The notes beneath the pieces were generated by a model that was not told the origin of the DNA, did not search any database, and saw nothing but the letters and a program-made list of their open reading frames with translations. The translations under genes and the position numbers were made by a program. From an uncultured Syntrophobacteraceae bacterium (lineage in GTDB: Bacteria > Desulfobacterota > Binatia > UBA9968), in assembly GCA_964404195.1 (NCBI GenBank), contig CAYOJC010000001.1:57940-121939 (forward strand): DNA of 64,000 bases, given 5' to 3'. The stretch's first letter is position 1. Every line of letters starts with the position of its first letter. This document shows positions 862 to 25,390 of the stretch, piece by piece.

Positions 862-3114
862 ATGGCGCATAAGGTTGTCGGGCGCTCGCTGCCCCGCGTC
901 GAGGGGGCGGCGAAGGTCAGCGGCGCGTTGAGTTACACGGCGGACATTCTTCGGCCCGGCTCTCTCTGGGGCAAAGTTCTGCGCAGCCCGCTGCCCCACG
1001 CGCGCATCCTTAATATAGATACCAGCCGGGCCATGAGCCTCCCCGGCGTGAAGGCGATCGTCACCGCCGCCGACATGAAAACGACGCTCGTCGGCGCGAC
1101 CTTGAGAGACATGCCGGTGATGGCGCGCGACCGCGTGCGCTTCGTCGGCGAGGAGATCGCCGCCGTCGCCGCCGTGGATGCCAACACGGCGGAAGAAGCG
1201 GTTGAATTGATCGACGTCGAATACGAAGATCTGCCGGCGGTTTTCGATCCGCTTGAGGCGATGAAGCCCGAGGCGCCCATCCTGCATCCGGATTACCCGA
1301 CTTATAAAGGACCGAAGACCATGGCGCTGGAACTCAAGAACGTCCAGACGCTCGTGCGCGGCCGGAAGGGCGAGATCGAAAAAGGCTTCGCCGAATCGGA
1401 TTTCATCTTCGAGAAAACTTATCGCACCCAGCTCGTGCACCAGGGCTACATCGAGCCTTACGCCTGCACGGTGGAAGTCGACGATCAGGGGCGCGTCGCC
1501 ATCTGGGTGGCGAACCAGGCGTTCTTCAAGCTCAGGCGCGTGCTGGCGGAATATTTGGAGCTTCCTCCGGAAGATATCACGATCTACCCAAGCAACATGG
1601 GCGGCTCGTTTGGCGCCAAAGATTTTCTGTTCCTGAATCCGGCGGCTTATTATCTCTCGAAAAAAACCGGCCGGCCCGTGCGCTTTGTGAAAAGCTACGG
1701 CGAAGAACTCGGAGCCACCACGCCGCGCCACTCCGCGGTGATCTCTCTCCGTGTCGGTGTAAAAAAGGACGGCCGCCTCTGGGCATGGGACGGAAAGACC
1801 TTCTACAACGGCGGCGCTTACGGCGCGTTCAAGCCCAACCCCAAAGGCTCGATGAGCGGCGCGTACATGGTCGCGGGCTCTTATAATATCCCCAACACGC
1901 GCCTCGAAGGGTATTGCGTTTACACCAATCAAGTCCCGTGCGGCTACTTCCGCGCGCCGGGGGAAGCCCAGACCCTGTTCGCGGTCGAAAGCCATATGGA
2001 CCTAATGGCCGAAGCGCTCGGCATGGATCCGATCGAGTTCCGCCGGCTGAACGCGCTGAAAGAAGGCGACACGCGCGCGACGGGCGAATCGCTGGAAGAT
2101 CCGCACTGCCTCGAAGTTCTCGATCGCGTGGCGAAAATTTCCGGATGGAAAAAGAAGCAAGCCAAAGCATCTGCCGAAAATAAATTAACCGGGCGCGGCG
2201 TGGCGCTCGGCGACCGCCACGTGGGCCACGGCGAGTCGAGCTTCGAATTGCTTCTCGAGCGCGGCGGAACGCTCCGGCTCTTGAGCGGCGTCGGTGATCA
2301 GGGGGTCGGCGCCTACACGATGCACCGCCAGGTCGCGGCCGAGCTGCTCGGAGTCAAGCCGGGCTTGATCGAGATCGAGGTCAGGGACACCTCCAACGCG
2401 CCATACGACCAGGGGATCAAGGGCGCCAGGGGGACGCACGTCGAGGGACAGGCGGTCGCGCGCGCGGCCGGCGCGTTGATCGACAATCTGCGTTCTCTCG
2501 CCGCGTCGCGATGGGGCGTGCCGGTCGAAAAGATTTCCTGGACCGATGGAGCCGCTCTCTTCAAAAACCACGGAAAAAGAAAAAAGCTGAGCTTGAAAGA
2601 ATTGGCGGGCCTTTCGGAAGCGCCGGTCAAGGGATTCGGCGAGTACACGGGACACAAGCCGCACGTCTATTCCTTTCAGGCGATCGTCGTCGACGCGGAG
2701 GTCGATCAGGAGACCGGCGCGGTCGAGTTGCAACACCTCTACTTCGTCTACGATGTCGGCACGATCATCAATCCGCTCAATCACCAGGGGCAGATCGAAG
2801 GCGGCATCGTCCAAGGCCTGGGCTACGCGCTGACCGAAGAGCTGAAAGTCGATGAAGGGCGCGTCACCACGGTGACGCTGGGCGATTACAAAATTCCCAA
2901 CATCGCCGACAATGTGCCGCTCACGACTTCGCTGGTTCAAGCGAAGGTCGGCCCCGGCCCGTTCGGCGCTAAGTCGGTGGCCGAGGCCGGAGTCAGCATC
3001 GTCGCGCCGGCGGTGGCGAACGCGGTCTACAACGCGACCGGCGTGCGGATCACTGAGCTGCCGGTCACCGCGGAAAAAATTATCGAGGGTCTCGCATGCC
3101 GTTCCAAAGTTTGA
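862..3114 (+). CDS. xanthine dehydrogenase/aldehyde oxidase-family molybdopterin-binding large subunit (copy 1)
   Basis: The protein is ~750 aa with an N-terminal a/b-hammerhead (RVEGAAKVSG..YTADI, LWGKVLRSPLPHARI) and the MoCo-domain motifs GGSFG, GYFRAPGE and GQGxxT. The ATG at 862 has a GGGAG RBS; the track start at 847 is a GTG. Confidence 0.85.
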   Translation: MAHKVVGRSLPRVEGAAKVSGALSYTADILRPGSLWGKVLRSPLPHARILNIDTSRAMSLPGVKAIVTAADMKTTLVGATLRDMPVMARDRVRFVGEEIAAVAAVDANTAEEAVELIDVEYEDLPAVFDPLEAMKPEAPILHPDYPTYKGPKTMALELKNVQTLVRGRKGEIEKGFAESDFIFEKTYRTQLVHQGYIEPYACTVEVDDQGRVAIWVANQAFFKLRRVLAEYLELPPEDITIYPSNMGGSFGAKDFLFLNPAAYYLSKKTGRPVRFVKSYGEELGATTPRHSAVISLRVGVKKDGRLWAWDGKTFYNGGAYGAFKPNPKGSMSGAYMVAGSYNIPNTRLEGYCVYTNQVPCGYFRAPGEAQTLFAVESHMDLMAEALGMDPIEFRRLNALKEGDTRATGESLEDPHCLEVLDRVAKISGWKKKQAKASAENKLTGRGVALGDRHVGHGESSFELLLERGGTLRLLSGVGDQGVGAYTMHRQVAAELLGVKPGLIEIEVRDTSNAPYDQGIKGARGTHVEGQAVARAAGALIDNLRSLAASRWGVPVEKISWTDGAALFKNHGKRKKLSLKELAGLSEAPVKGFGEYTGHKPHVYSFQAIVVDAEVDQETGAVELQHLYFVYDVGTIINPLNHQGQIEGGIVQGLGYALTEELKVDEGRVTTVTLGDYKIPNIADNVPLTTSLVQAKVGPGPFGAKSVAEAGVSIVAPAVANAVYNATGVRITELPVTAEKIIEGLACRSKV

Positions 3115-3176
3115 GAGAGTTCGTGCGCGAGTTTCACTTGTCACGACAATGGGACGCAACCCAGGGGGCTTTATGA
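3096..3176 (+). pseudogene. remnant of a UbiD 5' end (MPFQSLREFVREFHL…*) overlapping the XDH copy-1 stop
   Basis: gcatgccgttccaaagtttgagagagt (3092-3118) is 22/27 identical to the true UbiD start at 5749-5775 (gcatgccgttccaaagcctaagagatt; MPFQSLRDYL). Confidence 0.4.
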
Positions 3177-4732
3177 ACTGCTTGCGCATTGCGGCGTCTT
3201 TGTTGAGCGTATTTCTTGCCGTGGGTTTGTCCGAGGGAGCGGAGTCTCCGAGATACGGGGGGCGTTTGGTTTTTGGCCTGGCTAGAGACATCACCGGCCT
3301 GAATCCTTTCGTTCGCACCCGCTCAACCAACAAGTACGTACGGCAGATTGCCTACGAAGCGCTTTTCGACTACGACACAAAGGCTCAGCTCGTTCCGGCG
3401 CTTGCCGACTCCTGGACTGTTTCTCCCGATAGCAAGGTTTACACGATCAGGCTGCGGCGGGGGGTAAAATTTCACAACGGCGAGGAGCTGACCGCCGAAG
3501 ATGTGAAATGGAGCGCCGAATACGCCAAGGACCCCAAGAACGCGGCAACCGGAATCACCTTCTTGGAAAGAGTGCAGGCAGTGAGCGTCAAGGACAAGTA
3601 CACGGTGGAGTTCCTCCTAAAAGAGCCCCAGGCAATCTTTCTTAACCTGTTGGCATCCATGGAGGCCTCCTTCCCCGTTCTTCCCAAGGGGTCGGTGCCG
3701 GCTGCGCAGAGCAATTTGCCCAGTCCCCCTCCCGGGACCGGACCTTTTGAATTCAAAGAATACAAGCCGGCAAGAGAACTAGTCTTTGTGCGCAACAAAA
3801 ACTACTGGCAGAAAGGCCTTCCCTATCTCGACGAGCTGGTGCTCAAACCGGTGGAGGATGAGCAGGTTCGTTTTGCTTCGCTGCGCGCCGGGGACCTGGA
3901 TATGATCGAGCGAACCGCCTACGTATTCGTGAAGAAAATATTAAACAGAGAATACCCGGAGATCGGGGTTACAGAAGCCAAATATGCCGGCTTTCGGCGC
4001 CTGATATTCAACGTCGTGAATCCGCCCTTCAACGATCTCAAGCTGCGTCAGGCCGTGCTTTATGCTCTGGACAAAAAAGGCTACCTCGAAGGGGCCTTCT
4101 GGGGTCTTGGGGAGCCGGCGAACCAGGCGATTCCGACGGAGAGCCCCTGGTACGTCAAGCTGCCGGAGGCCAAGCGGGATTTGGCCAAGGTCAAGGCTCT
4201 TTTAAAGGAATCGAAAGCCGGCCCCGACTTTGAAGTGGAAATCCTGGCCCGGAGAGGGGAAGAGCCCGAGACCCAGATCCTTCGAGAGCAACTGACGACC
4301 GCCGGGATCAAAACCAGGATTGCGCTGCTGGAGAGCGCGGCGCGTGAGGCGCGGACCCGCGCAGGTGATTTTATGATAGTCCTGAGCGGGATGGATGTGC
4401 CCAACGATCCGGGGGACGATTATTCGGTGGAGTATGGCTGTAATCCCGAGGAAGTGTCGGCCAAACGACGAGGCCAGAACCAGGCCGGTTATTGCAATAA
4501 AGAATTCGACCGGCTGATGGCGGAGGCGTCGAAGATCCAGGATACGAAAAAGCGTTATGGGCTTTACGCCAATGCACTTGGGATTCTCAATCAAGAAATT
4601 CCGGCTATCTCCATGGCGTTCGTGCCGCGCTATTTCAGCTATCGACAGAAGGTGCGGGGCTTCAGGACCGACGGAGGCGATCGCTTCAACACGATCACTA
4701 CGGGACTTTCACGGGTTTGGATCGAACCTTAG
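3173..4732 (+). CDS. ABC transporter substrate-binding protein, family 5 (DppA/OppA-like), copy 1
   Basis: Signal peptide MNCLRIAASLLSVFLAVGLSEG, then RYGGRLVFGL…GLNPF…KFHNGEELTAEDV…PPGTGPF. An alternative ATG lies at 3149. It is paralogous to 20310, 25467(-) and 28635. Confidence 0.85.
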   Translation: MNCLRIAASLLSVFLAVGLSEGAESPRYGGRLVFGLARDITGLNPFVRTRSTNKYVRQIAYEALFDYDTKAQLVPALADSWTVSPDSKVYTIRLRRGVKFHNGEELTAEDVKWSAEYAKDPKNAATGITFLERVQAVSVKDKYTVEFLLKEPQAIFLNLLASMEASFPVLPKGSVPAAQSNLPSPPPGTGPFEFKEYKPARELVFVRNKNYWQKGLPYLDELVLKPVEDEQVRFASLRAGDLDMIERTAYVFVKKILNREYPEIGVTEAKYAGFRRLIFNVVNPPFNDLKLRQAVLYALDKKGYLEGAFWGLGEPANQAIPTESPWYVKLPEAKRDLAKVKALLKESKAGPDFEVEILARRGEEPETQILREQLTTAGIKTRIALLESAAREARTRAGDFMIVLSGMDVPNDPGDDYSVEYGCNPEEVSAKRRGQNQAGYCNKEFDRLMAEASKIQDTKKRYGLYANALGILNQEIPAISMAFVPRYFSYRQKVRGFRTDGGDRFNTITTGLSRVWIEP

Positions 4733-4759: not shown

Positions 4760-5479
4760 ATGCCAAAGCCGCCTGACGAATTCGTCGAAGAGCTTTTGCG
4801 CGGGAGGCTACCCCGTCGCGAGGAACGGCCGACTCGAGCGCTGATCGTTCAGGGAAAGCTCAGCAAAGAACAAGTGAAGCTATGGGTCAAGCAGCTTCAC
4901 TATTATCGCGTCAACGTGCCGCGCAAGGAGCTCTATATCCTGGCCAATTGCCCGATCAAAGAGATCCGGATGGAGCGATTGAAAAAGTATCTTGAAGAGG
5001 AGGACGATCGCGTGATGGGCGGGAAAGCCGGACCTCATGCCGAGCTGTGGGCCCAGTTGGGCGAAGGCCTGGGGATAAGCCGCGCGGAGATGGAAGACTT
5101 CGACGCCATGTGCCCGGAATACCGCCTCCTCGTCGACTCATGGGTCAACTACGCGCGCGATCACACTTGGCTGGGAGGCTCGGCCATGAGCTTCGATGAA
5201 GACGGCGGCACGGGGACCTCGGGCGAAGGAATGAACATGGCGCGGGCCTTGTCCAAATTCTACGGCGTTCCCGATTCGGGGTTGGCACATTTCACGCTCC
5301 ATTCCGAGCTTGACATCGAGCACGGCGCGTCGACCCACGACTTGATCCGAAAATACTCCCTTACGGACGAGCAACAGGAGGGCGTTCGCAACGCGGTCCG
5401 CTTCAAAAGAGCCTTCCATACGATGGAGGACCAGTGCATGCGGATCGCTTGCCGAATCGACCCGCAATTATATGCTTAG
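4760..5479 (+). CDS. PqqC-like (cofactor-independent oxygenase, haem-oxygenase-like fold) protein
   Basis: LSKEQVKLWVKQLHYYRVNVPRKELYILANCP and HAELWAQLGEGLGISRAEM align with the PqqC motifs TREQIQGWVANRFYYQ..IPLKDAAI.ANCP and IEAWLRLGEAVGLSRDDL. An AAAGGAGG RBS is present. No pqqA/B/D/E genes are nearby. Confidence 0.7.
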   Translation: MPKPPDEFVEELLRGRLPRREERPTRALIVQGKLSKEQVKLWVKQLHYYRVNVPRKELYILANCPIKEIRMERLKKYLEEEDDRVMGGKAGPHAELWAQLGEGLGISRAEMEDFDAMCPEYRLLVDSWVNYARDHTWLGGSAMSFDEDGGTGTSGEGMNMARALSKFYGVPDSGLAHFTLHSELDIEHGASTHDLIRKYSLTDEQQEGVRNAVRFKRAFHTMEDQCMRIACRIDPQLYA

Positions 5480-5750: not shown

Positions 5751-7184
5751 ATGCCGTTCCAAAGCCTAAGAGATTACCTCAAGAAGGTCGAAGAGCACGG
5801 CGATCTTCTTAAGATCGACGGCGCGTCCCGCGAGGAGGAGATCGGCGCGCTGGCGGAAATCGTCGCGAGCACGGCCAAGCACCCGATGCTGCTCTTTGAC
5901 AACATCAAAGGATACCCCGCGGGATATCGCGTTTCGGCCAGCACGATGGGCGGCGTGCGCCGGATGGCTCTCGGCCTCGGCTTGGACCCGTCGCTCGCCA
6001 ATGTCGAGCTGGTAAAGGCATGGAAAGAGAAGCTCAAGACGTTCAAGCGGATCGAGCCGCGCGAAGTCGCCGACGGTCCGGTGCGGGAAAATGTTTTCTC
6101 CGGCGAAAAAATTGACTTGCTCAAATTCCCCGCGCCGAAGTGGCACGAACGCGACGGCGGCTACTACATCGGCACCGGCTGCTGCGTGATCACGCGCGAC
6201 CCCGACGATGGCTGGGTCAACATGGGCGTCTATCGCGTCGTGGTCCACGATAAGAAAACTCTCGGGATTTTTATCAACCACATCCAGCACGGCCGGCTCA
6301 TCGTCGAGAAGTACTGGTCGCAAGGAAAAAGTTGCCCGGTGATTATCTCTTTCGGACAAGACCCCGCGCTTTTTCTCGCCGCCGCGCAGCGCGAGCCGTG
6401 GGGCGTGGGCGAGCTCGACGTCGCGGGATGGCTTCGCGGCGAGCCGGTGGAAATTCTGAAAGGCGAGAGGACGGGTCTGCCGATTCCCGCGCACGCGGAG
6501 ATCGTCGTCGAAGGAGAGATCCCTCCGATCGAGAAAGAAGCGCGGCCCGAAGGGCCGTTCGGCGAGCGCACGGGTTACTACGCGACCGGGACGAGAAACG
6601 AGCCGGTCGTCCGCGTGTCGTCGCTGATGCACCGCAACGATCCGATCATCCAGGGTGATCCGCCGCTGAAGCCGGTGCCCGGCATGGACCACTTCGGCAT
6701 CCCGCTGCCCGCGGCGGGTGTGTGGTCGGCGTTGGAATCCGCCGGCATTCAAGACATCCGCGGGGTCTGGCTGCACGGCCCGTTCGCGACGGTGATCTCG
6801 CTCAAGCAGCGCTACGAAGGCCACGCGCGCCAGGCGGCGGCGATCGCGCTCGGCGCGCGCGCCACGGTGCACCTCGGAAGATTCGTCATTCTTGTCGACG
6901 ATGATATTGACCCGTCGGATCTCAGCGACGTCTTCTGGGCGGTCACGACGCGCTGCGATCCGGCGGAGCAAACGGAAGTCTTGAAAGGATTTCCGACGAG
7001 CGGCATCAATCCGCGCGTCGCGCCGGCGGACCGTGAAGAGGGACACTTTGTCTCTTCCAAGATGATCATCGACGCGTGCCGGCCGTACCGTTGGATCAAG
7101 GATTTTCCGGCGACGAACGTCATGAGCCCGGAGCTGAAAACGAAAGTAGCGGAGAAGTGGAAGCGATTGCTGGAGCGGCAGTGA
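5751..7184 (+). CDS. UbiD-family decarboxylase (copy 2)
   Basis: 477 aa. The N-terminus MPFQSLRDYL…LLFDNIKGYPAGYR matches the canonical UbiD PALLFENPKGY region, and the full-length architecture fits the family. Confidence 0.85.
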   Translation: MPFQSLRDYLKKVEEHGDLLKIDGASREEEIGALAEIVASTAKHPMLLFDNIKGYPAGYRVSASTMGGVRRMALGLGLDPSLANVELVKAWKEKLKTFKRIEPREVADGPVRENVFSGEKIDLLKFPAPKWHERDGGYYIGTGCCVITRDPDDGWVNMGVYRVVVHDKKTLGIFINHIQHGRLIVEKYWSQGKSCPVIISFGQDPALFLAAAQREPWGVGELDVAGWLRGEPVEILKGERTGLPIPAHAEIVVEGEIPPIEKEARPEGPFGERTGYYATGTRNEPVVRVSSLMHRNDPIIQGDPPLKPVPGMDHFGIPLPAAGVWSALESAGIQDIRGVWLHGPFATVISLKQRYEGHARQAAAIALGARATVHLGRFVILVDDDIDPSDLSDVFWAVTTRCDPAEQTEVLKGFPTSGINPRVAPADREEGHFVSSKMIIDACRPYRWIKDFPATNVMSPELKTKVAEKWKRLLERQ

Positions 7185-7278: not shown

Positions 7279-9531
7279 ATGGATTTTCTGACGATCGGCC
7301 AGCCGGTCCCGCGCGTCGACGGCCCCGCCAAGGTGAGCGGCGCGTGCGTTTACACGGCCGACGTTCCCGGCGCGGGAACGCTGTGGGGAAAATTTTATCG
7401 CAGCCCGCTGCCGCACGCGCGCATCCTGAACGTCGATACGGGAAAAGCCAAGAAAGTTCCCGGCGTCAAAGCCGTGATCTCCGCCGGCGACGTGTCGCCG
7501 CGGCGCGAGGGCTACACGCTGCAGGACAAGCCGATCTTCGCGCGGAAAAAAGTTTTATATTGCGGGGAAAAGGTCGCGGGAGTCGCGGCCGTCGATAAGG
7601 ACGCGGCGGAAGAGGCCGTCGCGTTGATCGAAGTCGAGTACGAAGAGCTGCCGGCGGTGTTCGATCCGCTCGAGGCGATGAAACCGGAAGCGCCCCTGCT
7701 TCACCCCGACTATGCCTCCTACCTTGGGCCGCCGAGCATGGCGCCGGATCTGAAAAACGTCCAGAGCGTGATGCGCGCCGCCAAAGGCGACACCGCCAGA
7801 GGATTCGCGGAATCGGACGAGATTTTTGAAAACTCTTTTCGCACGCAGATGGTCCACCAGGGCTTCATCGAGCCGCGCGCGTGCCGGGTCGAGATCGACC
7901 GCGACGGACGGATCCAGGTCTGGTTTTGCCATCAATCGAGCTTCAAGGTCCGCCGCTGGATGGCGACGCACCTCGGAATTGCCGAGGAGAAAATCGTCGT
8001 CCATCCGGTCGCGCTCGGCGGCTCGTTCGGCGGCAAAGAAGGCTATGAGGAGGCGCTCTGCACCTATTACCTGGCCGCGGCCGCCGGCAAGCCGGTGAAA
8101 GTGGTGGATAGCTACGCCGAGGAGCTGCTCGACGGCGAGCCGCGCCACGCGGCGGTAATCCGGCTTGGCACCGGCGTGAAGCGGGACGGCCGGCTGTGGG
8201 CGTGGGAGGGAAAGATATTTTACAACGGCGGCGCCTACGCCGCGCGAAAGCCCAGCCCGAAGGCCAACATGAGCGGCACCTTCATGCTGGCGGGCTCGTA
8301 CAACATCCTGCATACGCTCATGGAAGGCTACGCGGTTTACACCAATCAAATACCGTGCGGCTACTTTCGCGCGCCGGGAGAGCCGCAGACGCTCTTCGCC
8401 GTCGAATCACACGTCGACATGATCGCCGAAACCTTGGGCATCGATCCGCTCGAGTTTCGCTTGAAGAACGTGTTGCGCGCGGGAGATACGAGGGCGACGG
8501 GGGAGCCGCTCGCCGATCCGCGCGGCGCGGAAGCGCTCAGCGAGCTGGGAAAAATTTCGGCCTGGAAAAAAACTTCTCTAAAACCGACGCGAGGCCGGAA
8601 GCTCCGCGGGCGCGGGCTCGCCCTCGGCGACCGCCACGTGGGCCACGGCGAGTCCAGCGCCGAGATTTATCTCGAGCGCGACGGCGCGGTGCGCCTCGTC
8701 ACTTCCGTGAGAGATCAGGGCGTCGGCGCTTACACGATGCATCGCCAGGTCGCGGCGGAAACGTTGGGCATCGAGCCGGAGCGCGTTCGGGTCGAGATCA
8801 AAGGGACGGCCGACGGTCCTTACGACGAGGGCGTCCGGGGCGCCCGCGGCGCGCACGTCGAAGGCCGTGCGGTGTTGCGCGCGGCCGAAAACTTAATCGC
8901 ATGTCTCCGAAAACAGGCCGCGGCGTACTGGAGAGTCGACGCCGGCAAGGTCGAGTGGCAAGCGGGCAAGGCGTGGTTGGCGAACGGCCGAAAATCCAAA
9001 AACCTCGGACTTAACGATCTGGCCCGCATGATCGAAGCGCCGCTCAAAGGCTACGGCCATTACAAGGCCGAGAAAAAACCTTCGGTCTATTCCTTTCAGG
9101 CGATCGCCGCAGACGTCGAAGTCGACGCCGAAACCGGCGCAGCGCGCGTCGCGAAGCTCTATTTTACTTACGACGTGACCAAAGTCATCAATCCGGTCAT
9201 TCACCAGGGACAGATCGACGGCGCGATCGTCCAGGGATTGGGCTATTCGTTGATGGAGGAAATGGCCGTGGACGAAGGGCGGGTGCTCACGCTGAGCCTC
9301 GGCGATTACAAGATACCCAACATCAAAGACGTTCCGCCCCTCGTCACTTCTCTGGTGCAAGCCAAAAAAGGGCCCGGACCTTTCGGCGTGAAGGCCGTGG
9401 CGGAAGCGGGCATCAGCATCGTCGCTCCCGCGATCGCCAACGCCGTTTACAACGCGACCGGCGTGAGAATCACGGAGCTGCCGGTCACGGCGGAAAAAAT
9501 TCTCGCCGGTCTGGCGCGTCTTTCTAAATGA
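7279..9531 (+). CDS. xanthine dehydrogenase-family molybdopterin-binding large subunit (copy 2)
   Basis: It is paralogous to 862..3114 (PRVDGPAKVSGACVYTADV…GYFRAPGEPQTLFAVESH). The ATG at 7279 is in frame; the track ORF was extended upstream. Confidence 0.85.
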   Translation: MDFLTIGQPVPRVDGPAKVSGACVYTADVPGAGTLWGKFYRSPLPHARILNVDTGKAKKVPGVKAVISAGDVSPRREGYTLQDKPIFARKKVLYCGEKVAGVAAVDKDAAEEAVALIEVEYEELPAVFDPLEAMKPEAPLLHPDYASYLGPPSMAPDLKNVQSVMRAAKGDTARGFAESDEIFENSFRTQMVHQGFIEPRACRVEIDRDGRIQVWFCHQSSFKVRRWMATHLGIAEEKIVVHPVALGGSFGGKEGYEEALCTYYLAAAAGKPVKVVDSYAEELLDGEPRHAAVIRLGTGVKRDGRLWAWEGKIFYNGGAYAARKPSPKANMSGTFMLAGSYNILHTLMEGYAVYTNQIPCGYFRAPGEPQTLFAVESHVDMIAETLGIDPLEFRLKNVLRAGDTRATGEPLADPRGAEALSELGKISAWKKTSLKPTRGRKLRGRGLALGDRHVGHGESSAEIYLERDGAVRLVTSVRDQGVGAYTMHRQVAAETLGIEPERVRVEIKGTADGPYDEGVRGARGAHVEGRAVLRAAENLIACLRKQAAAYWRVDAGKVEWQAGKAWLANGRKSKNLGLNDLARMIEAPLKGYGHYKAEKKPSVYSFQAIAADVEVDAETGAARVAKLYFTYDVTKVINPVIHQGQIDGAIVQGLGYSLMEEMAVDEGRVLTLSLGDYKIPNIKDVPPLVTSLVQAKKGPGPFGVKAVAEAGISIVAPAIANAVYNATGVRITELPVTAEKILAGLARLSK

Positions 9532-10589
9532 ACATGGCGGTCCTTAAACCCGAAGAGCATGAGCGGATGGTGATGGAGTCGGTCCGCTTCGCCAAGGAAG
9601 AAGCGAAGCGGCGGCAACAGGCACCGGTGCAGATCAAGGCCGAGGAGATCCGCGCGCAGTTCGAAACGAATTCCCATCTCTATCTCGTCGATCCGCGGTT
9701 GGGCTTCAATCACCGGACGTTTCGCTTCTGGATCAACCGCATCCCCGCGGGCGAGGAAGAGGGGATGGGCTGGAAGACGCTCGGCCACCGCCACACGGTC
9801 GAGGCGGTGCTCCACGTGCTGCAAGGAACCGGCCACAGCATCGTCGACGGCGCGCGCTACGACTGGGCGCCGGGCGATTTTATCAGCGTGCCGATGTTTT
9901 CCTGGCACCGCCACGTGAACACCGGCGACGAAGATTTTATTTATCTGGCGGCGACCACCGGCCCGCTGTCGTTGTCTCTCGGATTGGCGGTCTACGAAGA
10001 CGAGCGGTATCCGGACTATTGGGTCTTCGGCCACAAGAGCGAGAGCGCGATGAAGTCGCTGATCCCCGGCGCGGACGACAGCACGCGCGTGCGCACTGCC
10101 GAGGAGGCGTCGCGGGAGCCGCTGAGCCCGACGGACGCCTATTACCGGCAGCACCTGTTGTTTTCCGGCGGCGAGGAGAAGCGCCGCCGCCAAAGCCGGG
10201 TGCTGGTGAAAGGGGCTCAAGTCGATTTCGAAAAGACCGCCATGGGACGCGTCCGTTATGTGATCGATCCGCGGACGGGCTTTCTCATGCGCGTCCTGGG
10301 GACGCTGTTGGCCGAGATCTCTCCGGGAAAACGCTCCGGCGCGCACCGGCATATGTACGAAGAGGTGAATTATGTCCTTTCAGGGCGCGGCTACAGCCTG
10401 ATCGAAGATCGGAGATACGACTGGGCGGCAGGCGACGTTCTTTGTATTCCGGTCTTCGGTTGGCATCAGCACTTCAACACCGGCAAGGAGCCGGCGCGGC
10501 TGTTGGTCCATCACAACCGGCCGCTGATGGAAAATCTGGGCTTCATGCACGTCGAACAAGGCGAAGAAGCAGAGGAGGAATCCTTATGA
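9528..10589 (+). CDS. bicupin dioxygenase, gentisate 1,2-dioxygenase-like
   Basis: Two cupin modules each carry His motifs (GHRHTVEAVLHVLQGTG…SWHRHVN and GAHRHMYEEVNYVLSGRG…GWHQHFN). The start ATG overlaps the XDH stop (ATGA). Confidence 0.7.
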   Translation: MNMAVLKPEEHERMVMESVRFAKEEAKRRQQAPVQIKAEEIRAQFETNSHLYLVDPRLGFNHRTFRFWINRIPAGEEEGMGWKTLGHRHTVEAVLHVLQGTGHSIVDGARYDWAPGDFISVPMFSWHRHVNTGDEDFIYLAATTGPLSLSLGLAVYEDERYPDYWVFGHKSESAMKSLIPGADDSTRVRTAEEASREPLSPTDAYYRQHLLFSGGEEKRRRQSRVLVKGAQVDFEKTAMGRVRYVIDPRTGFLMRVLGTLLAEISPGKRSGAHRHMYEEVNYVLSGRGYSLIEDRRYDWAAGDVLCIPVFGWHQHFNTGKEPARLLVHHNRPLMENLGFMHVEQGEEAEEESL

Positions 10590-11572
10590 GACGGACTCTA
10601 TACGTCGGCTTGCTGGCGTTGTGTTTTCTCCCGCAGCAGGTTCTTGCGGCGGAACGGGCCCTGCGCGTCTCCTATCCGTCTCCCGCCACCGTTTACCTGC
10701 CGCTCTGGGCGGCGAAAGAGGCGGGCTTTTTCGCCAAGCACAAGCTGGCCGTAGAACTGGTCCATGTGGGATCGTCGCCCATATCCCTCTCGGCTTTCCT
10801 GGCCGGTGAGATCGATATCCTGGGCGGCGGCGGCTCGGCCGTACCCAACGCGTTTCTTCAGGGTTTCCGCGATCTCCAGTTTTTCGCCTCCATGAACAAC
10901 AAGTTTGTCTTCTCGATCTATGCCCATCCGTCCATTTCAACCGCGGCGGAGCTTCGCGGCAAGAAGATCGGCGTGACGCGCCTGGGCGGCACGATGCACT
11001 TTGCCACTCGGTATTACCTCAAAGGGACGGGACTCGATCCTTACAAAGATGTCACGCTGGTGCAGGTCGGGAGGGCCGAAGACATCGTCACGGCGCTAGC
11101 GGGAGGGACCGTCGATGCGGGCACCATGTCTTTTCCGTTCGATCTCAAGACCAAGGAGTTGGGATACCGCGAGCTTGCCGATCTGAGCCAGAGCGGCGCG
11201 CGCTACGCGTCGTCCTCCTTTCTCGGCAAAAAACAGTTTCTTTTGGACAACCGTCTGCGCTTGGAAAGTTTTGTCAAGGCGATGATCGAGGCGATCCATT
11301 TCGTCAAGAGCCGGCCCCAGGAGGCAATAAAAATCCTCTCCCGCTATACCCGCCTTACCGACGTCAATACTCTCAAGAGCACCTTAGACCTTCACGTCGC
11401 AAAGATCTGGCCGCGAGTGCCTGAGATACAGCCGGAGGATCTCAAGCTGGTACTCGAAGAGCTGGGCGAAAGAAACCCCCGCGCGCGCGAGATCGCGCCG
11501 GCCGAGCTGATCCACGACCGGATCGTGAGGGATGTCGTCCAATCGGGCTTTGTCGAGCAGTTGTACAGATAG
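10586..11572 (+). CDS. periplasmic substrate-binding protein, NMT1/THI5-like (NitT/TauT SsuA/TauA family), copy 1
   Basis: Signal peptide MRRTLYVGLLALCFLPQQVLAA, then LRVSYPSPATVYLPLWAAKEAGFF. GAGGAGG RBS. The start overlaps the bicupin stop (ATGA). The track ORF 10019.. is an antisense-free upstream extension. Confidence 0.75.
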   Translation: MRRTLYVGLLALCFLPQQVLAAERALRVSYPSPATVYLPLWAAKEAGFFAKHKLAVELVHVGSSPISLSAFLAGEIDILGGGGSAVPNAFLQGFRDLQFFASMNNKFVFSIYAHPSISTAAELRGKKIGVTRLGGTMHFATRYYLKGTGLDPYKDVTLVQVGRAEDIVTALAGGTVDAGTMSFPFDLKTKELGYRELADLSQSGARYASSSFLGKKQFLLDNRLRLESFVKAMIEAIHFVKSRPQEAIKILSRYTRLTDVNTLKSTLDLHVAKIWPRVPEIQPEDLKLVLEELGERNPRAREIAPAELIHDRIVRDVVQSGFVEQLYR

Positions 11573-11595: not shown

Positions 11596-13038
11596 ATGAA
11601 CACGGATCTGCGAGACTGGATCGTTGCGGTACAAGCCACCGGTGAGATCAAGACGCTCAGCGGCGCAGACTGGAACAGAGAGATCGGCACGCTGGTTGAG
11701 CTCAACGCCAAGGCGCGTGGGCCGGCCCTGCTCTTCGACGAGATCAGGGGCTACCCGGCGGGCTTCAGGCTGCTGGCCGGGGCGATGTCGAGCGCCAGAA
11801 GACTCGCCCTGACGCTTGGGCTTCCGCCCGATCTCGATGGGCTCGAACTCATCCGTTGCATGAAAGACAGCATGCGCGGCTGGAACGACCGCCTGGGTGA
11901 TTTTCCGCCGGTAGAGGTTCAAAGCGGCGTCGTCTTTGAAAACGTGGATGCCGAGGAAAAGACCAATCTGTTAAAGTTTCCATCCCCGCTTTGGCACGAA
12001 GAGGACGGCGGGCGCTATATCGGCACAGGCTCGGTTGCCATCATGCGAGACCCGGAAAGCGGCTGGATCAATCTAGGCACCTACAGGATCATGGTTCACG
12101 ATGAAAAGAGCGCCGGCATCTTCATGGCACCCGGCCACCATGGCGGAATCATCATGAAGAAATACTGGAAAGCGGGCAAACCCTGCCCGATTGCCGTCTC
12201 CGCCGGCCATCACCCGCTGATTTTTTTTGCCGGATCTTCTTCGCTTCCCGCGGAGACTTCGGAATACAACTACGTCGGTTCCATTCTGAAGGAGTCGGTG
12301 CCGGTCGTGATGGGACCCGTCACCGGGCTTCCGATTCCGGCCTACAGCGAAGTCGCATTCGAAGGCCACCTTTTTCCCGACGAAATGAAAACCGAGGGAA
12401 TATTCGGCGAATGGCCCGGCTACTACGTGAGCGAGGCCAAGCCGGAGCCGGTCATCCGGGTCAAGGCCGTGTATCACCGAAACGATCCGATTCTGCTCGG
12501 CGCCTGGCCCGGAAAACCACCCCACGACAGCACTTACCGAAACTCGATCATAAAGTCTGCAAGCCTTTGGGAGCTTCTCGAACGAGCGCGCATTCATGGC
12601 GTCACCGGCGTTTATCGCCCGGAGGCCGGGAGCGCAAATCTTTTGACGATCGTCAGGATCAAGCAGCTCTACGACGGCCACGCCCGCCAGGTGGGAACCG
12701 TAGCTTCGCAGCTTCTCCATCCGTCACATTCCACCCGCTATGTCATCGTCGTCGATGACGGCCTCGACATCACCAATCTTGAGGAGGTGATGTGGGCGGT
12801 CTGCACGCGCAGCGACCCGGCGCGCTCGATCGCCATCATTGACCAGACCCACGCCAACGCTCTCGACCCGATGGTTCGCTCACGCTATGACAAAGCGGCC
12901 GGCAACACGGCTTCCTGCGCGATCATCGACGCCTGCTGGCCCTACCGCGCGCTTGCCAAAGTCCCCAAGGTCGCAGAGTCGAGCGAGGAGTTTAAAAAAC
13001 AGGTCAAAGCCAAGTGGAGAGGAAAACTGTCTCTGTAA
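11596..13038 (+). CDS. UbiD-family decarboxylase (copy 3)
   Basis: 480 aa. GPALLFDEIRGYPAGFR and a UbiD-like C-terminus (VIVVDDGLDITNLEEVMWAV). Confidence 0.85.
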   Translation: MNTDLRDWIVAVQATGEIKTLSGADWNREIGTLVELNAKARGPALLFDEIRGYPAGFRLLAGAMSSARRLALTLGLPPDLDGLELIRCMKDSMRGWNDRLGDFPPVEVQSGVVFENVDAEEKTNLLKFPSPLWHEEDGGRYIGTGSVAIMRDPESGWINLGTYRIMVHDEKSAGIFMAPGHHGGIIMKKYWKAGKPCPIAVSAGHHPLIFFAGSSSLPAETSEYNYVGSILKESVPVVMGPVTGLPIPAYSEVAFEGHLFPDEMKTEGIFGEWPGYYVSEAKPEPVIRVKAVYHRNDPILLGAWPGKPPHDSTYRNSIIKSASLWELLERARIHGVTGVYRPEAGSANLLTIVRIKQLYDGHARQVGTVASQLLHPSHSTRYVIVVDDGLDITNLEEVMWAVCTRSDPARSIAIIDQTHANALDPMVRSRYDKAAGNTASCAIIDACWPYRALAKVPKVAESSEEFKKQVKAKWRGKLSL

Positions 13039-13052
13039 GCCGTTCTTTTTTA

Positions 13053-14246: not shown

Positions 14247-14352
14247 TTTGCCCCCGCCGGACGATTTTCCCGGTTTAAGATTTTTTCGTTTTCGCCGACC
14301 GGCTTTTTTATAGGCCAGCCTGGTCGGAAAGACAACCGATCTATTGACCGAT

Positions 14353-14428
14353 GCCGGCGCGGCTGTTGGTCCATCACAACCGGCCGCTGATGGAAAATCT
14401 GGGATTCATGCACGTCGAACAAGGCGAA
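14353..14428 (+). repeat. 76-bp remnant of the bicupin 3' end (75/76 identical to 10491-10566)
   Basis: Direct comparison of gccggcgcggctgttggtccatcacaaccggccgctgatggaaaatctggg[c/a]ttcatgcacgtcgaacaaggcgaa. It lies immediately upstream of NMT1-like SBP copy 2, in the same position as the intact bicupin relative to copy 1. Confidence 0.8.
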
Positions 14429-16430: not shown

Positions 16431-17434
16431 TGGGAAGAACGCGAGTCATCGCCGCGATCATTTTTGCTTGGATCGCGATTGCCGCGGGCGGCGCGAGCGG
16501 CGCCGCTGCGCCGGCTTCTCTGCGCATCGCCTACCCGGCGCCGACCGCTTCTTTTCTTCCGCTCTGGACGGCCCAGGACGCAGGGTTTTTCAAGAAGCAC
16601 GATCTCGCGGTGGAAGTGATCCGGGTCGGATCCTCGACCCGCGGCATGGCCGCTTTGCTCGCGGGCCAGATCGACGTGCTCGCGGGCGGCGGCACCGGCG
16701 GCCTGGTGGCGCAGTTGCAAGGCTTCACCGATCTCGCGGTCTTCGGCACCAACGTGCATACTTGGGTGTTTTCGGTCTACACGGCGCCGTCGATCAAAGA
16801 CGTCGCGCAGCTCCGCGGCAAGAAGTTGGGCGTGACCCGGTTCGGCGGGACTATGGATTTCGCGGCGCGCCACTTTCTCAAAGGACAGGGGTTAGAGCCG
16901 GGGAAGGACGTCGTTCTGGTTCAGCTCGGCAGCGCGGCGGACATCGTCACCGCTTTGGCCAACGGAGTCGTCGATTCCGGGATGATGTCGGTCCCTTATG
17001 TGTTCGTCGCAAAAAGGTTGGGACTCCGGGAGCTGACCGATCTCTCCCAAACCGGGATACGCTACGCGCAGGCGGCGCTGGTTGCGAAGAGAAGTTTTCT
17101 GCGCGACAAACGGGAAGTTGTGACTCGGTTTATCAAGTCGCAGATCGAGGCGATTCATTTTTTAAAGACGCGTCCGGCCGACGGCATGCGCGTCCTGGGC
17201 CGCTATACGCGAACCGATGACGAGGAAATTTTGAAGCAGGCGTACCATTACCACGTGGACCGGCTGCTCTCGCGCGTTCCCGACATTCATCCGGACGATG
17301 TCAGATTATTGTTGGAGGAAGCCGCGCTCACCAATCTCAAAGCCAAGGGCGCGAATCCGCAGGATTTCATCGACGAGGGACCGGTGCGCGAAGTCGTGCG
17401 CTCCGGCTTCGTCGAGCAGCTTTACAAGAAATAA
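16430..17434 (+). CDS. NMT1/THI5-like periplasmic substrate-binding protein, copy 4
   Basis: LRIAYPAPTASFLPLWTAQDAGFF. The start overlaps the copy-3 stop (TGATG). Confidence 0.75.
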   Translation: MGRTRVIAAIIFAWIAIAAGGASGAAAPASLRIAYPAPTASFLPLWTAQDAGFFKKHDLAVEVIRVGSSTRGMAALLAGQIDVLAGGGTGGLVAQLQGFTDLAVFGTNVHTWVFSVYTAPSIKDVAQLRGKKLGVTRFGGTMDFAARHFLKGQGLEPGKDVVLVQLGSAADIVTALANGVVDSGMMSVPYVFVAKRLGLRELTDLSQTGIRYAQAALVAKRSFLRDKREVVTRFIKSQIEAIHFLKTRPADGMRVLGRYTRTDDEEILKQAYHYHVDRLLSRVPDIHPDDVRLLLEEAALTNLKAKGANPQDFIDEGPVREVVRSGFVEQLYKK

Positions 17435-17465
17435 CTTTGCGCGGGTAGTTTCCGAGGAGGAGACC

Positions 17466-18896
17466 ATGGATGACTTGAGAGCTTGGTTGAAAGAGATAGA
17501 CGCGCTGGGTCAACTGAAGCAGGTGAACGGCGCGTCAACGAACCTGGAGATCGGCGTGATCACGGAGATCAACGGACAGCGGAGGGGCCCGGCGCTTTTG
17601 TTCGACAACATACCGGGCTTTCAAAAAGGTTTCAGGATTTTGTCCGGTTCGAGCCTCAACGCCAAGAGGCTCGCCTTGACGCTCGGCTTCCGCGACATCG
17701 ACACCGACCGGCAGCTCATCTCGCGCCTCGAAGGAAAGATGAGCGAGTTCGAGCGCAAGGCGCGGGATTATCCCACGAAGGACGTTTCGAGCGGCTCCGT
17801 CTTGCAGAATCGACTTTCCGAGCAGCAAGTCGATCTGCTGAAATTTCCCGCGCCCAAGTGGCACGAGCACGACGGCGGCAACTATCTCGGCACGGGCTGC
17901 ATCGTCGTCACCAAGGATCCCGACAGCGGCAGGATCAACTTCGGGTCGTACCGGCTGATGGTGCAGGATAAAAAAACCGTCACGCTGCACATTTCTCCGG
18001 CGCATCACGGCGCGATCAACGTGAGAAAATATCACGAGCGCGGGGAAGCCGCGCCGGTCGCCGTTTCGTTAGGCCACCATCCGCTCTATCTCATCATCTC
18101 GGGCATGGGGATTTCCTACGGCATTTCGGAATACGAATATTTCGGCGCGGTGACGGGGGAATCCGCTGCGGTGATTCGCGGTGAGGCGACGGGATTGCCG
18201 ATTCCGGCGGCGAGCGAGATCGCCTTCGAAGGTTTCTGTCCTCCCGGCGAGTTGCGCGAAGAGGGGCCTTTCGGCGAATATACCGGCTACTATGCATCGG
18301 GCCGGGGCAAAGAGCCGATCATCGACGTCAAGGCGGTCTACCACAGGGACGATCCGATTATCCTCGGCGTGCCGCCGGGACGTCCGCCGCACGACTACTC
18401 TTACGCCAGCGTGCTGATGAAATCCGTCAACGTCAAAGAGTCGCTCGTCAAAGACGGCATCCCGGACGTCAAAGGCGTGTGGTTTCACGAGGCGGCCGGT
18501 GTGAATTTTTTCGGCGTCGTGTCCATACGCCAGAGATATCCCGGTCACGCGCGCCAGGCGGGCCACGTCGCGGCGCAGTGCCAGGCGGCGGGAAATCACC
18601 TGGGCCGCTACATCGTCGTCGTGGACGACGATATCGATCCGACGGATCTGAATGAAGTCATCTGGGCGATCGGAACCAGGTCCAATCCGGAAAAGGATAT
18701 CGACTTGATCCGCAACACCTACACGAGCCCGCTCGATCCGATCTATTCCAGGGAGAAAAAAGGCGGCTTCGGCACTCGCGCGGTCATCGATGCCTGCAAG
18801 CCCTACGATTGGATCAACGAATTTCCCAAGGTCGCGTCGACGAGCGCGGAGGAAAGAAAAAAAGTGCTGACGAAGTGGAAACAGCTCTTCGAATAG
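17466..18896 (+). CDS. UbiD-family decarboxylase (copy 4)
   Basis: MDDLRAW…GPALLFDNIPGFQKGFR. GAGGAGGA RBS. The track ORF 17298.. is an upstream extension. Confidence 0.85.
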   Translation: MDDLRAWLKEIDALGQLKQVNGASTNLEIGVITEINGQRRGPALLFDNIPGFQKGFRILSGSSLNAKRLALTLGFRDIDTDRQLISRLEGKMSEFERKARDYPTKDVSSGSVLQNRLSEQQVDLLKFPAPKWHEHDGGNYLGTGCIVVTKDPDSGRINFGSYRLMVQDKKTVTLHISPAHHGAINVRKYHERGEAAPVAVSLGHHPLYLIISGMGISYGISEYEYFGAVTGESAAVIRGEATGLPIPAASEIAFEGFCPPGELREEGPFGEYTGYYASGRGKEPIIDVKAVYHRDDPIILGVPPGRPPHDYSYASVLMKSVNVKESLVKDGIPDVKGVWFHEAAGVNFFGVVSIRQRYPGHARQAGHVAAQCQAAGNHLGRYIVVVDDDIDPTDLNEVIWAIGTRSNPEKDIDLIRNTYTSPLDPIYSREKKGGFGTRAVIDACKPYDWINEFPKVASTSAEERKKVLTKWKQLFE

Positions 18897-23026: not shown

Positions 23027-23030
23027 GAAA

Positions 23031-23140: not shown

Positions 23141-25390
23141 ATGGCTAAATTTCGTGTCATCGGCCGACCGCTTGAACGCGAGGACGGGCTGGGGAAAGTC
23201 AACGGCGAGGCGCGCTACACGGCCGACGTGATCCGTCCGGGGACGCTCTGGGGCAAAGTTTTGCGGAGCCCTTTGCCGCACGCGCGCATTATCAATATAG
23301 ACACGAGCCGGGCGAAGGCGTTGCCCGGCGTCAAAGCCGTCATCACCGCCGCGGACGTGAGCCCGAAGTTGATCGGCCATACGTTCCCCGATTCGCCGGC
23401 GCTGGCGCGCGAGCGCGTGCGTTTTGTCGGCGACAAAGTCGCCGCCGTCGCCGCCGTGGACAAGGACATCGCCGAAGAGGCGGTGAGTCTGATCGACGTG
23501 GAGTACGACGAGCTGCCGGCGGTCTTCGATCCGCTGGAGGCGATGAAGCCCGACGCGCCTCTGATCCATCCGGATTACGCGAGTTATAATCTGCCAAAGA
23601 GCAAGGCGCCGGAGCGCCGCAACGTGCAGAACATGCTGACCGCCGGGAAGGGTAACGTCGAGCAGGGCTTCGCCGAATCGGACAAAATATTCGAGCATAC
23701 GTTCCGCACGCAGATGGTGCACCAGGGCTACATCGAGCCCAACACGTGCTCGGTGGAGATCGACGGCGAAGGCAGAGTTTTAGTCTGGGCAGCGACGCAG
23801 TCGCCCTTCAGCGTGCGCGATCAAATGGCGCACTACCTGGAGGTGCCAAAGGACCGGGTGATCCTGCACCCGGTGGTCGTCGGCGGATCGTTCGGCGGCA
23901 AGGATTACTTGACCGACATTCCCCTCGCCTATTATTTAGCCAGGGCGACCGGCAAGCCCGTCCGTTTCGTCAGGACTTATGCGGAGGAGCTGATGGCCGC
24001 CTCGCCGCGCCATCCTTCGATCATTGTTCTTCGCACCGGCATCAAAAGCGACGGCCGCTTGTGGGCGCGGGAAGCGCGGGTGATCTATAACGGCGGCGCT
24101 TACGGCGCCTTCAAGCCGAGCCCGCCGGCGCACATGAGCGGCGGACTGACAATGGGCGGCGCGTACCGCGTTCCCCACACCCGCCACGAAAGTATGTGTG
24201 TCTATACGAATCAGGTTCCGGGCGGTTACATGCGCGCCTCAGGCGAGTTGCAGACTGTCTTCGCGACCGAGACACACATGGACATGATCGCGCACGAATT
24301 AAAAATAGATCCGTTGGAGTTTCGCTTCATGAACGCGTTGGTCGAGGGCGATTCCAATTACGCCGGCTTCGAGTATCGGGACATCAAGTGCCGCGAAGTG
24401 CTCGAACGCGCGCGGAAGGTTTGGAAAAAACCCAGGTTGAAGCCGCAGAAACCGGGAAATTTGACCGGCCGCGGCATCGCGTTGACGTGCCGGCACATTG
24501 GCCAGGGTCAGTCTGAAGCCGAGCTCCTGCTGGGAAAAGACGGAAACGTCCGGCTCAACGTCGGGATTCTCGACGTCGGCACCGGAGTTCACGTCATCCA
24601 AAAGCAGATCGTAGCGGAGATTCTCGGCATCGAGCCGGAGCGCGTCAGCGTCGAAGTGCCGGACACGAACCACGCGCCCTATCACGACGGAATCAAGGGG
24701 CAGGGCGCGACGCACGTCATCGGCCAAGGGGTCGCGCGCGCGACGCAGGCGCTGATCGAAAGTTTGAAGGCGCGCGCGGCAATTCAATGGGAAGTCGAGC
24801 CCGCGCAGGTCGAATGGAAGGACGGCGGCGTTCATCTCATCACCGGCAAGCAAAGGCTCGATCTCAAGCAGCTCGCGGCGCTGGCGCCCGGCGAGCCGGG
24901 CCGCGGCTTTGCATATTACGATGGACGGATACGACCGCGGGAGCACATCTTTCAGGCGGCGATCTCGGATGTCGAAGTCGACCGTGACACCGGACAGGTC
25001 GAGGTGAGGCGAATGAGCACGTTCCACGATGTCTCGGTGGTCATCAATCCAACCACGCACCAGGGGCAGATCGAAGGCGGGATGATGCAAGGACTGGGAA
25101 TGGCTTTATGCGAGGAGATCGTCCTCGACGAGGGGCGCGTGACGACGCTGACGCTGGGCGATTACAAGATGCTCACGGCGCGCGATATCCCGGCGCGCGA
25201 GACCACGCTCGTTCACGGCGCCACGCATGGACCGGGCCCGTTCAACGCCAAACCGGCGGCCGAGCACGCCATCACGCCGATTCCTCCGGCGGTGGGAAAT
25301 GCGGTTTTCAATGCGACCGGCGTTCGGCTTACCAGCCTGCCGATAACGGCGGAGAAGGTCCACCAGGGACTAAAAAAGCCGTGCTCGTGA
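23141..25390 (+). CDS. xanthine dehydrogenase-family molybdopterin-binding large subunit (copy 3)
   Basis: MAKFRVIGRPLEREDGLGKVNGEARYTADV…GGYMRASGELQTVFATETH. 749 aa. Confidence 0.85.
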   Translation: MAKFRVIGRPLEREDGLGKVNGEARYTADVIRPGTLWGKVLRSPLPHARIINIDTSRAKALPGVKAVITAADVSPKLIGHTFPDSPALARERVRFVGDKVAAVAAVDKDIAEEAVSLIDVEYDELPAVFDPLEAMKPDAPLIHPDYASYNLPKSKAPERRNVQNMLTAGKGNVEQGFAESDKIFEHTFRTQMVHQGYIEPNTCSVEIDGEGRVLVWAATQSPFSVRDQMAHYLEVPKDRVILHPVVVGGSFGGKDYLTDIPLAYYLARATGKPVRFVRTYAEELMAASPRHPSIIVLRTGIKSDGRLWAREARVIYNGGAYGAFKPSPPAHMSGGLTMGGAYRVPHTRHESMCVYTNQVPGGYMRASGELQTVFATETHMDMIAHELKIDPLEFRFMNALVEGDSNYAGFEYRDIKCREVLERARKVWKKPRLKPQKPGNLTGRGIALTCRHIGQGQSEAELLLGKDGNVRLNVGILDVGTGVHVIQKQIVAEILGIEPERVSVEVPDTNHAPYHDGIKGQGATHVIGQGVARATQALIESLKARAAIQWEVEPAQVEWKDGGVHLITGKQRLDLKQLAALAPGEPGRGFAYYDGRIRPREHIFQAAISDVEVDRDTGQVEVRRMSTFHDVSVVINPTTHQGQIEGGMMQGLGMALCEEIVLDEGRVTTLTLGDYKMLTARDIPARETTLVHGATHGPGPFNAKPAAEHAITPIPPAVGNAVFNATGVRLTSLPITAEKVHQGLKKPCS

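Follow-up and report, generated by a model that had tools for sequence, protein, structure and literature searches.

The large subunits of the xanthine dehydrogenase (XDH) family are known from operons in which their genes stand close to those of an iron–sulfur (FeS) subunit and an FAD subunit, as in xdhABC and paoABC of E. coli. We analyzed a stretch of 64,000 nucleotides (hereafter, the window) from an uncultured Syntrophobacteraceae bacterium (Desulfobacterota, Binatia; contig CAYOJC010000001.1, positions 57,940 to 121,939 of the forward strand). Three large-subunit genes of the XDH/CoxL family occur there, all on the + strand: L1 (862..3114, 750 amino acids), L2 (7192..9531, with 750 amino acids from the likely start at 7279), and L3 (23141..25390, 749 amino acids). 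No gene for either partner is present in the window, and the comparisons below suggest that the partners are probably encoded at a separate locus and shared.

Comparison with described systems

Among proteins of known structure, the best relative of L3 is HcrA, the alpha subunit of 4-hydroxybenzoyl-CoA reductase of Thauera aromatica (PDB 1RM6/1SB3; match to 1RM6_A with E 6e-86 over residues 13-742). The HcrA model TIGR03194 is also the best NCBIfam model for the window proteins, which belong to the same fold family and have the catalytic Glu at the same position. The pathways of HcrA, anaerobic phenol metabolism for example, employ UbiD-family (de)carboxylases too, and UbiD genes accompany the large subunits in the window as well. 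On the other hand, HcrA is encoded together with FeS (gamma) and FAD/[4Fe-4S] (beta) subunits, neither of which is in the window, and the window carries cupin dioxygenase-type genes, which point to aerobic chemistry.

The large subunits of the canonical operons (xdhABC and paoABC of E. coli, and relatives of the Rokubacteria type, 45–48% identical to L3) share with the window proteins the three-domain architecture, the active-site Glu, and the motifs for the molybdopterin cofactor (MoCo). The difference is in the gene order: the canonical FeS and FAD genes lie 2–136 bp from the large subunit, whereas in the clade of the window proteins they are never adjacent. In sphingomonads, many scattered, substrate-specific catalytic subunits of multicomponent Rieske oxygenases depend on a single set of ferredoxin and reductase, whose genes lie elsewhere. 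The logic of hub and spokes is the same, although the family is unrelated and the sharing is experimentally established there, whereas for L1, L2, and L3 we infer it.

In the lumazine cluster of Cupriavidus sp. LA-1, UbiX and a UbiD-like decarboxylase are encoded together with a dehydrogenase of the xanthine oxidoreductase (XOR) family that has large, FeS, and FAD subunits. This one cluster for the catabolism of an N-heterocycle combines the Mo enzyme, which hydroxylates, with a later decarboxylation dependent on prenylated flavin mononucleotide (prFMN) (PMC12391406). In gene content, the combination of a Mo hydroxylase and UbiD is that of the window. The [2Fe-2S] subunit, the FAD subunit, and UbiX are all encoded within the LA-1 cluster, while the window encodes none of the three. 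Beyond this precedent, we found nothing specific in the literature on clusters of UbiD, XDH, and cupin genes, on orphan coxL, or on COG1529/COG2080/COG1319 ratios, and nothing on L:M:S ratios in a paper on coxL of sponge symbionts.

The large subunits L1, L2, and L3

The three proteins are paralogues, 53–55% identical to one another. Each matches the Pfam domains PF01315 (Ald_Xan_dh_C), PF02738 (MoCoBD_1), and PF20256 (MoCoBD_2) above the gathering scores (E 1e-27 to 1e-68), and Pfam finds no Fer2, Fer2_2, or FAD_binding_5 domain in any of them. The N-terminus leads straight into the hammerhead, with MAHKVVGRSLPRVEGAAKVSG...YTAD in L1, MDFLTIGQPVPRVDGPAKVSG...YTAD in L2, and MAKFRVIGRPLEREDGLGKVNG...YTAD in L3. 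The ORF of L1 opens with GTG at 847, and ATG at 862 is the likely start; in L2, the 29 extra low-complexity residues that follow ATG 7192 are probably not translated. An earlier note on this DNA, made from its letters alone, had all three proteins beginning at the hammerhead without a fused 2Fe-2S domain, as is the case, and with an RVEG/RVDG and KVSG motif, which L3 does not carry exactly (it reads REDG and KVNG).

A Glu aligned with E692 of E. coli PaoC is present in L1, L2, and L3 and in 103 of 105 relatives, and the motifs GGSFG(A/G)K and VHQG are present in all three window proteins. We take PaoC E692 (E1261 in bovine XDH) to be the catalytic glutamate near the C-terminus, and GGxFGxK and the Gln of HQG to be contacts to MoCo. 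With the three-domain architecture, the catalytic Glu, and these motifs, L1, L2, and L3 are large subunits of the XDH/CoxL type. The active-site loops of CO dehydrogenase (CODH), AYxCSFR in form I and AYRGAGR in form II, are both absent from the three proteins. The earlier note had proposed to look at the MoCo residues and at the CODH loop; the former are present, and the latter is absent.

The scores against family models are in line with this. With TIGR02416 (CoxL) they are 270–282 bits for a cut-off of 991, and the proteins are not CoxL. With TIGR03194 they reach 494.8 (L1), 462.2 (L2), and 462.5 bits (L3) for a cut-off of 994.55, and with the XdhA and PucD models 396–431 bits for cut-offs of 780 (NF043082) and 783.65 (TIGR03196). 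All the NCBIfam equivalog models (HcrA, XdhA, PucD, CoxL, PaoC) thus stay below cut-off, with scores put at about half of it, and L1, L2, and L3 therefore belong to an uncharacterized subfamily of the XDH family.

The genes are intact and under purifying selection. L1 is 88% identical to its orthologue L008_3113 and L3 is 89% identical to L008_9986, with dN/dS of 0.11 in both comparisons. Each protein has only 5–7 cysteines, scattered and without any cluster, so that the large subunits cannot hold an Fe-S site of their own. An AlphaFold2 prediction of L3 from an alignment of 12 sequences gave a poor model (mean pLDDT 58, pTM 0.48).

Absence of FeS and FAD genes from the window

The search covered all stop-to-stop frames of at least 30 amino acids on both strands of the window. 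With XdhB, XdhC, PaoA, and PaoB of E. coli as queries (phmmer --max), no [2Fe-2S] or FAD subunit is found in the 64 kb (best E = 1.4), and profile hidden Markov models (HMMs) of 13 FeS and 16 FAD subunits give nothing better than E = 1 and E = 4.8, respectively. Neither of the two 2Fe-2S cysteine motifs is carried by any frame of the window. When 80 related loci were searched with the same E. coli queries, 22 gave both subunits, at E of about 1e-13 to 1e-43 except for two matches to incomplete genes at locus ends, which scored weaker; the negative result in the window is therefore real. In the first 34 kb, intergenic gaps do not exceed about 270 bp, which leaves no room for an overlooked gene of 160 amino acids.

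The orphan state of L1, L2, and L3 is confirmed. The claim of the earlier note that the 64 kb hold no partner gene is borne out by the phmmer, profile, and cysteine-motif searches alike, and the divergent small ORFs between genes that the note had named as a possible refutation did not appear in the phmmer and HMM searches. An ORF of 458 amino acids on the + strand (13014-14390) was considered as a novel partner and rejected, being the shadow of a minus-strand gene of the ornithine cyclodeaminase (OCD)/mu-crystallin family; it matches no family, and none of the related loci has a homologue.

Relatives and their gene neighborhoods

Homologues come almost exclusively from metagenome-assembled genomes (MAGs) and metagenomes, the closest (89–90% identical) being from Candidatus Binatia, and orthologues of the window proteins are kept across many MAGs. 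One genome per species was scanned, which gave 80 loci with large subunits of 45–89% identity, taken with 10-kb flanks; 58 have no FeS or FAD gene, and the 22 others do. A neighbor-joining tree of 95 large subunits shows three groups. Clade A, with about 27 genes from Binatia, Acidiferrales, and "Deltaproteobacteria" MAGs, includes L1, L2, and L3. Its members have UbiD decarboxylases, bicupin dioxygenases, and NMT1 binding proteins as neighbors, and an adjacent FeS gene in no case. Since the orphan state extends throughout clade A, it is an old feature of the clade and not a peculiarity of the window. The Dehalococcoidia clade (about 38 genes) is also without partners within 10 kb. In the canonical group (Rokubacteria and others), the order is L-FeS-FAD (L, large subunit), with the short gaps given above.

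In several loci of Rokubacteria and related MAGs (L030, L031, L032, L036, L040, L055, L060, and L062), the FeS and FAD matches fall within one ORF of about 320–525 amino acids. This suggests, from the ORFs, a fused subunit in these canonical relatives, as in Rhodobacter XdhA; several of the candidates overlap the end of the large-subunit gene, and the fusion is not established.

An all-against-all clustering of 1503 neighboring ORFs shows no ferredoxin, cytochrome, or flavodoxin-type family common to the orphan loci, the identities of the clusters being judged from representative sequences and precomputed Pfam labels, with no dedicated scan. The recurrent neighbors are luciferase-like flavoenzymes (mostly in Dehalococcoidia), SDRs, amidohydrolase-2 decarboxylases, split thiamine pyrophosphate (TPP) decarboxylases, MFS transporters, and binding proteins. 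In 12 Dehalococcoidia loci (L028, L029, L035, L039, L041, L044, L048, L051, L064, L065, L067, and L087), a luciferase-like (LLM) flavin enzyme gene precedes the orphan large subunit by 15–800 bp in the same orientation, and the two make up a conserved pair.

The window opens inside a gene for a UbiD-family decarboxylase (2..622, + strand; C-terminal part, cut by the window start; Pfam UbiD/UbiD_C), which with L1 makes up a UbiD-L module. This UbiD is 93–95% identical to the one directly upstream of the L1 orthologues in four loci (L008, 1512-2912; L012, 8404-9864; L015, 1931-3466; L016, 1321-2712), where the conserved module reads NMT1-NMT1-UbiD-L. The same level of UbiD identity holds across MAGs labeled Binatia, Acidiferrales, and Deltaproteobacteria, and the tree suggests a greater divergence for the large subunits; the module as a whole may have been transferred horizontally in recent times, or contigs may be mis-binned.

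Loci carrying the FAD-FeS pair

The MAG DASXRG01 carries on contig 367 (L008) the closest orthologues of L1 and L3 (88–89%), two of the three large subunits. On its contig 124 (L090), the order is NMT1-UbiD-Glyoxalase-L-L-SBP-FAD-FeS-NMT1-UbiD (SBP, solute-binding protein), with the FAD-FeS pair at 10001-10858 and 10855-11340; none of the 8 cluster cysteines is missing from the FeS protein. Orphan modules and, at another place in the same MAG, an FeS-FAD pair are therefore both present in the nearest sequenced relative. A similar case is CBDCDW01, a Binatia MAG in which four clade-A orphans are spread over three contigs and at least one FeS-FAD pair is encoded as well.

The arrangement of L090 is a recurrent one, (NMT1-UbiD-Glyoxalase)-L-(NMT1)-L-(SDR)-SBP_bac_1-FAD-FeS-UbiD/NMT1, found also in L088, L089, L092, L093, and L094, which we call hubs. 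The two hub large subunits represent two further orthologous groups, 35% and 41–44% identical to the window proteins; they are only 36% identical to each other and yet flank one FAD-FeS pair. In L023, the genes on one strand read Cupin-NMT1-Cupin-UbiD-L(clade A)-NMT1-L-NMT1-L-SDR-SBP-FAD-FeS, so that in L023/L101 one string of genes comprises a clade-A large subunit, two more large subunits, and one FAD-FeS pair. Homologues of the L023 FAD subunit, 61–91% identical, are annotated as Candidatus Binatia, and it is in their neighborhoods that the hub arrangement recurs.

Other loci with one pair and more than one large subunit are L080 (L-FAD-FeS-L), L057 (L-UbiD-FAD-FeS-L), and L085 (L-FAD-L-FeS). 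A scan of metagenomes gave the order FAD-FeS-NMT1-UbiD-L in L104, L105, and L109. About 8 kb separate the large subunit from the FAD-FeS pair in L097, and in L100 the pair occurs with no large subunit in the 7.8 kb upstream or the 5.7 kb downstream. In hub loci, one FAD-FeS pair thus accompanies up to three divergent large subunits, and sometimes none, at variable distance.

Source of the electron-transfer partners

We consider it likely that L1, L2, and L3 are ordinary catalytic subunits of the XDH family with FeS and FAD partners encoded at a separate hub locus, one pair being shared by the paralogues. The earlier note had left two explanations side by side, partners supplied in trans and an unusual electron-transfer arrangement. 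The former gains support from the hub pair of DASXRG01 and from the loci with one pair and several large subunits; for the latter we see no positive support, neither a conserved alternative redox partner nor any structural innovation relative to the partnered relatives. Other components are laid out in a similar way. No gene for UbiX (flavin prenyltransferase) occurs in the 64-kb window or in about 90 related loci, despite dozens of UbiD genes, and the supplier of prFMN must likewise be encoded elsewhere. Nine solute-binding protein genes (4 SBP_bac_5 and 5 of NMT1 type) stand against one ABC permease and ATPase set; either many of them use one translocator, or some are not transport proteins. 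The absence of UbiX and the nine binding proteins for one ABC transporter show that, in this island, common components are as a rule encoded apart from the specificity subunits. L1, L2, and L3 are uncharacterized members of a known family, in an arrangement of a known kind.

With partners supplied in trans, L1, L2, and L3 would act as the substrate-specific MoCo subunits of a catabolic island in a Candidatus Binatia-like bacterium. Judging from the gene content, aromatic or N-heteroaromatic carboxylic acids would most likely be taken up through the binding proteins and the single ABC importer. The imported carboxylates would be hydroxylated at Mo, with oxygen from water, and this hydroxylation would activate the substrate for prFMN-dependent decarboxylation by UbiD, after which the ring would be cleaved by the cupin dioxygenases. 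The electrons would follow the usual route from Mo to the pterin, FeS I, FeS II, and FAD, the last three carried by a CoxS-like protein with 2x[2Fe-2S] and a CoxM-like FAD protein common to the paralogues.

Several points weigh against the sharing of a hub pair. A hub in the window's own genome would be an extrapolation from a relative 88–89% identical. Among the loci examined, no clade-A large subunit directly adjoins an FeS or FAD gene. Conceivably, each hub pair serves its two hub large subunits and no others. We know of no biochemical demonstration, in the XDH family, of one FeS/FAD pair assembling with several large-subunit paralogues. Lastly, the conservation shared with partnered relatives, which speaks against a structural departure, is a measure not specific to the subunit interface: of the 144 columns in which conservation among FeS-adjacent large subunits reaches 85% or more, clade A retains 116 (and the Dehalococcoidia clade 132, at the same stringency), with the same residue still the commonest in most of the remaining 28.

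If the enzymes of the Binatia-type and Dehalococcoidia clades were truly independent of FeS and FAD subunits, Mo would be reoxidized directly by O2, by a soluble or other external acceptor, or through a complex with the adjacent UbiD and its prFMN, or the chemistry would be non-redox. Both clades are large and monophyletic, nearly all their members lack FeS and FAD genes within 10 kb, and the two are under purifying selection or well conserved, so that the orphan state is old and stable and not the accident of one genome. The proteins, however, have no new domain, no Cys motif, and no indel longer than 4 residues (a 4-residue insertion and a 3-residue deletion are the only ones specific to clade A with respect to partnered relatives), and most family-conserved columns are kept. 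In addition, FeS-FAD pairs are present in genomes that have clade-A genes, within clusters made up of the same gene families, and to our knowledge no member of the XDH family functions without FeS centers. We regard stand-alone enzymes as very unlikely, for the window proteins as for the two clades. The place of the missing subunits could also be taken by another local redox protein, namely, the TenA/haem-oxygenase-like di-iron-type protein, the adjacent UbiD with its prFMN, or the NAD(P) enzyme of the OCD/mu-crystallin family. UbiD is immediately upstream of L1 and L2 (in L2 with a gap of 8 bp for the start at 7192 or 94 bp for the likelier one at 7279), in a UbiD-L module that is conserved; TenA-like genes appear repeatedly next to clade-A large subunits, and in Dehalococcoidia a luciferase-like flavin enzyme is often directly upstream of the orphan. 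But none of these neighbors is universal: L3 and the pairs in L006, L010, L011, and L014 have no UbiD nearby, the TenA-like gene is limited to three clade-A contexts (the window, L005, and L012), and the window has no luciferase-like gene. A substitution of this kind seems highly improbable to us, also because UbiD beside a Mo hydroxylase reflects consecutive pathway steps in a characterized system with normal FeS and FAD subunits (PMC12391406).

The large subunits would not be true orphans if the partner genes were just upstream of position 1. In the hubs L088, L089, and L092, UbiD directly follows the FeS gene, and the window begins inside a UbiD gene. That gene, however, is the orthologue of the UbiD of the NMT1-NMT1-UbiD-L module and only about 28% identical to the hub UbiDs, and in L012 the 10 kb upstream from the module contain neither an FeS nor an FAD gene. 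The pair is therefore probably not just off the window edge, and even if it were, L2 and L3 would still be 7–23 kb away from it; we give this explanation little chance. A frameshift in one neighboring NMT1 gene, as well as the IS91 transposase and the integrase that flank the island, would fit with L1, L2, and L3 being decaying remnants of former L-S-M operons, but this is effectively refuted by the intact ORFs, the catalytic residues, the low dN/dS, and the conservation of the orthologues across many MAGs.

Other genes of the window

The first 34 kb form a single, tightly packed island with nearly all genes on the + strand. Besides the three Mo-hydroxylase catalytic subunits, it contains four UbiD decarboxylases, four cupin-type proteins, the binding proteins, and one ABC system, assigned mainly by Pfam. 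All of the following genes are on the + strand unless stated. L1 is followed by an SBP_bac_5 solute-binding protein (3173..4732, the start being taken from the gene call on Logan contig L096), by the TenA/PqqC/haem-oxygenase-like protein (Haem_oxygenas_2; 4760..5479), and by a UbiD-family decarboxylase (5751..7184) ending 8 bp ahead of the L2 ORF. This UbiD is above the cut-off of NCBIfam TIGR00148 and below those of the phenylphosphate carboxylase beta and VdcC models. Downstream from L2 (identified by Pfam, N-terminus, and catalytic Glu) come a bicupin like gentisate or 5-aminosalicylate 1,2-dioxygenase (9528..10589; two Cupin_2 matches in Pfam and partial NCBIfam matches below the family cut-offs), an NMT1/ThiY-type solute-binding protein (10619..11572; Pfam NMT1_2/NMT1, with the start estimated from a phmmer match), and a further UbiD-family decarboxylase (11596..13038; Pfam, NCBIfam).

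The OCD/mu-crystallin NAD(P) enzyme (13053..14246, − strand; PF02423, E 1.8e-34) is one of only three minus-strand genes of the island. Next are three NMT1-type binding-protein genes in tandem (14436-15431, 15421-16430, and 16430-17434). The middle one is split over two frames, with phmmer fragments at 15457-15696 and 15654-16427 and a frameshift at about 15650-15700, and is either a pseudogene or an assembly error. A UbiD-family decarboxylase (17298..18896; Pfam and TIGR00148; the real start is probably at about 17470) precedes a cupin (19094-20194), an SBP_bac_5 protein (20310-21860), and a second cupin (21899-23026), these three with identical gene calls on Logan contig L003. After L3, an SBP_bac_5 protein (25467-27011) and a cupin (27155-28258) are on the − strand, and another SBP_bac_5 protein (28635-30179) and the sole Opp/Dpp-type ABC permease and ATPase set of the island (30255-34049) are again on the + strand; all of these are also called on L003. 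The Logan contigs with window genes are short (3.3 kb for the TenA-like gene, 13.7 kb for L3), and L1 is not recorded in the contig index. Genes identical to those of the window occur in Logan run SRR6868923.

About 2 kb past the end of the island, an IS91-type (Y2) transposase and a tyrosine recombinase occur on the − strand (36212-38239), and the catabolic island may, given these adjoining genes, be mobile. Beyond it, the window contains assorted enzymes and, unrelated to the large subunits, three nonribosomal peptide synthetase (NRPS) genes on the + strand (50375-59525), one for an A-T-C-A-T protein of 1695 amino acids and two for A-T proteins. The ORFs of 160–239 amino acids tested between 59600 and 64000 have no Pfam match, and scans of the window for Rfam families, tRNAs, and tandem repeats gave no matches.

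Implications

For annotation, "orphan coxL" genes such as these should be taken neither for CO dehydrogenases nor for non-functional genes. No new mechanistic question arises unless the large subunits act alone, in which case the xanthine oxidase family would have a minimal form not known before. If the partners are indeed shared in trans, heterologous expression of L1, L2, or L3 requires that the FeS and FAD genes of the hub be expressed along with them. The window would then be a clear example of a modular layout of Mo hydroxylases in uncultured soil and sediment lineages (Binatia and possibly SAR202-type Dehalococcoidia), with many specificity subunits, cheap to duplicate, placed beside the pathway genes for UbiD decarboxylases, cupin dioxygenases, and binding proteins, and with one electron-transfer pair, one UbiX, and one ABC translocator kept elsewhere.

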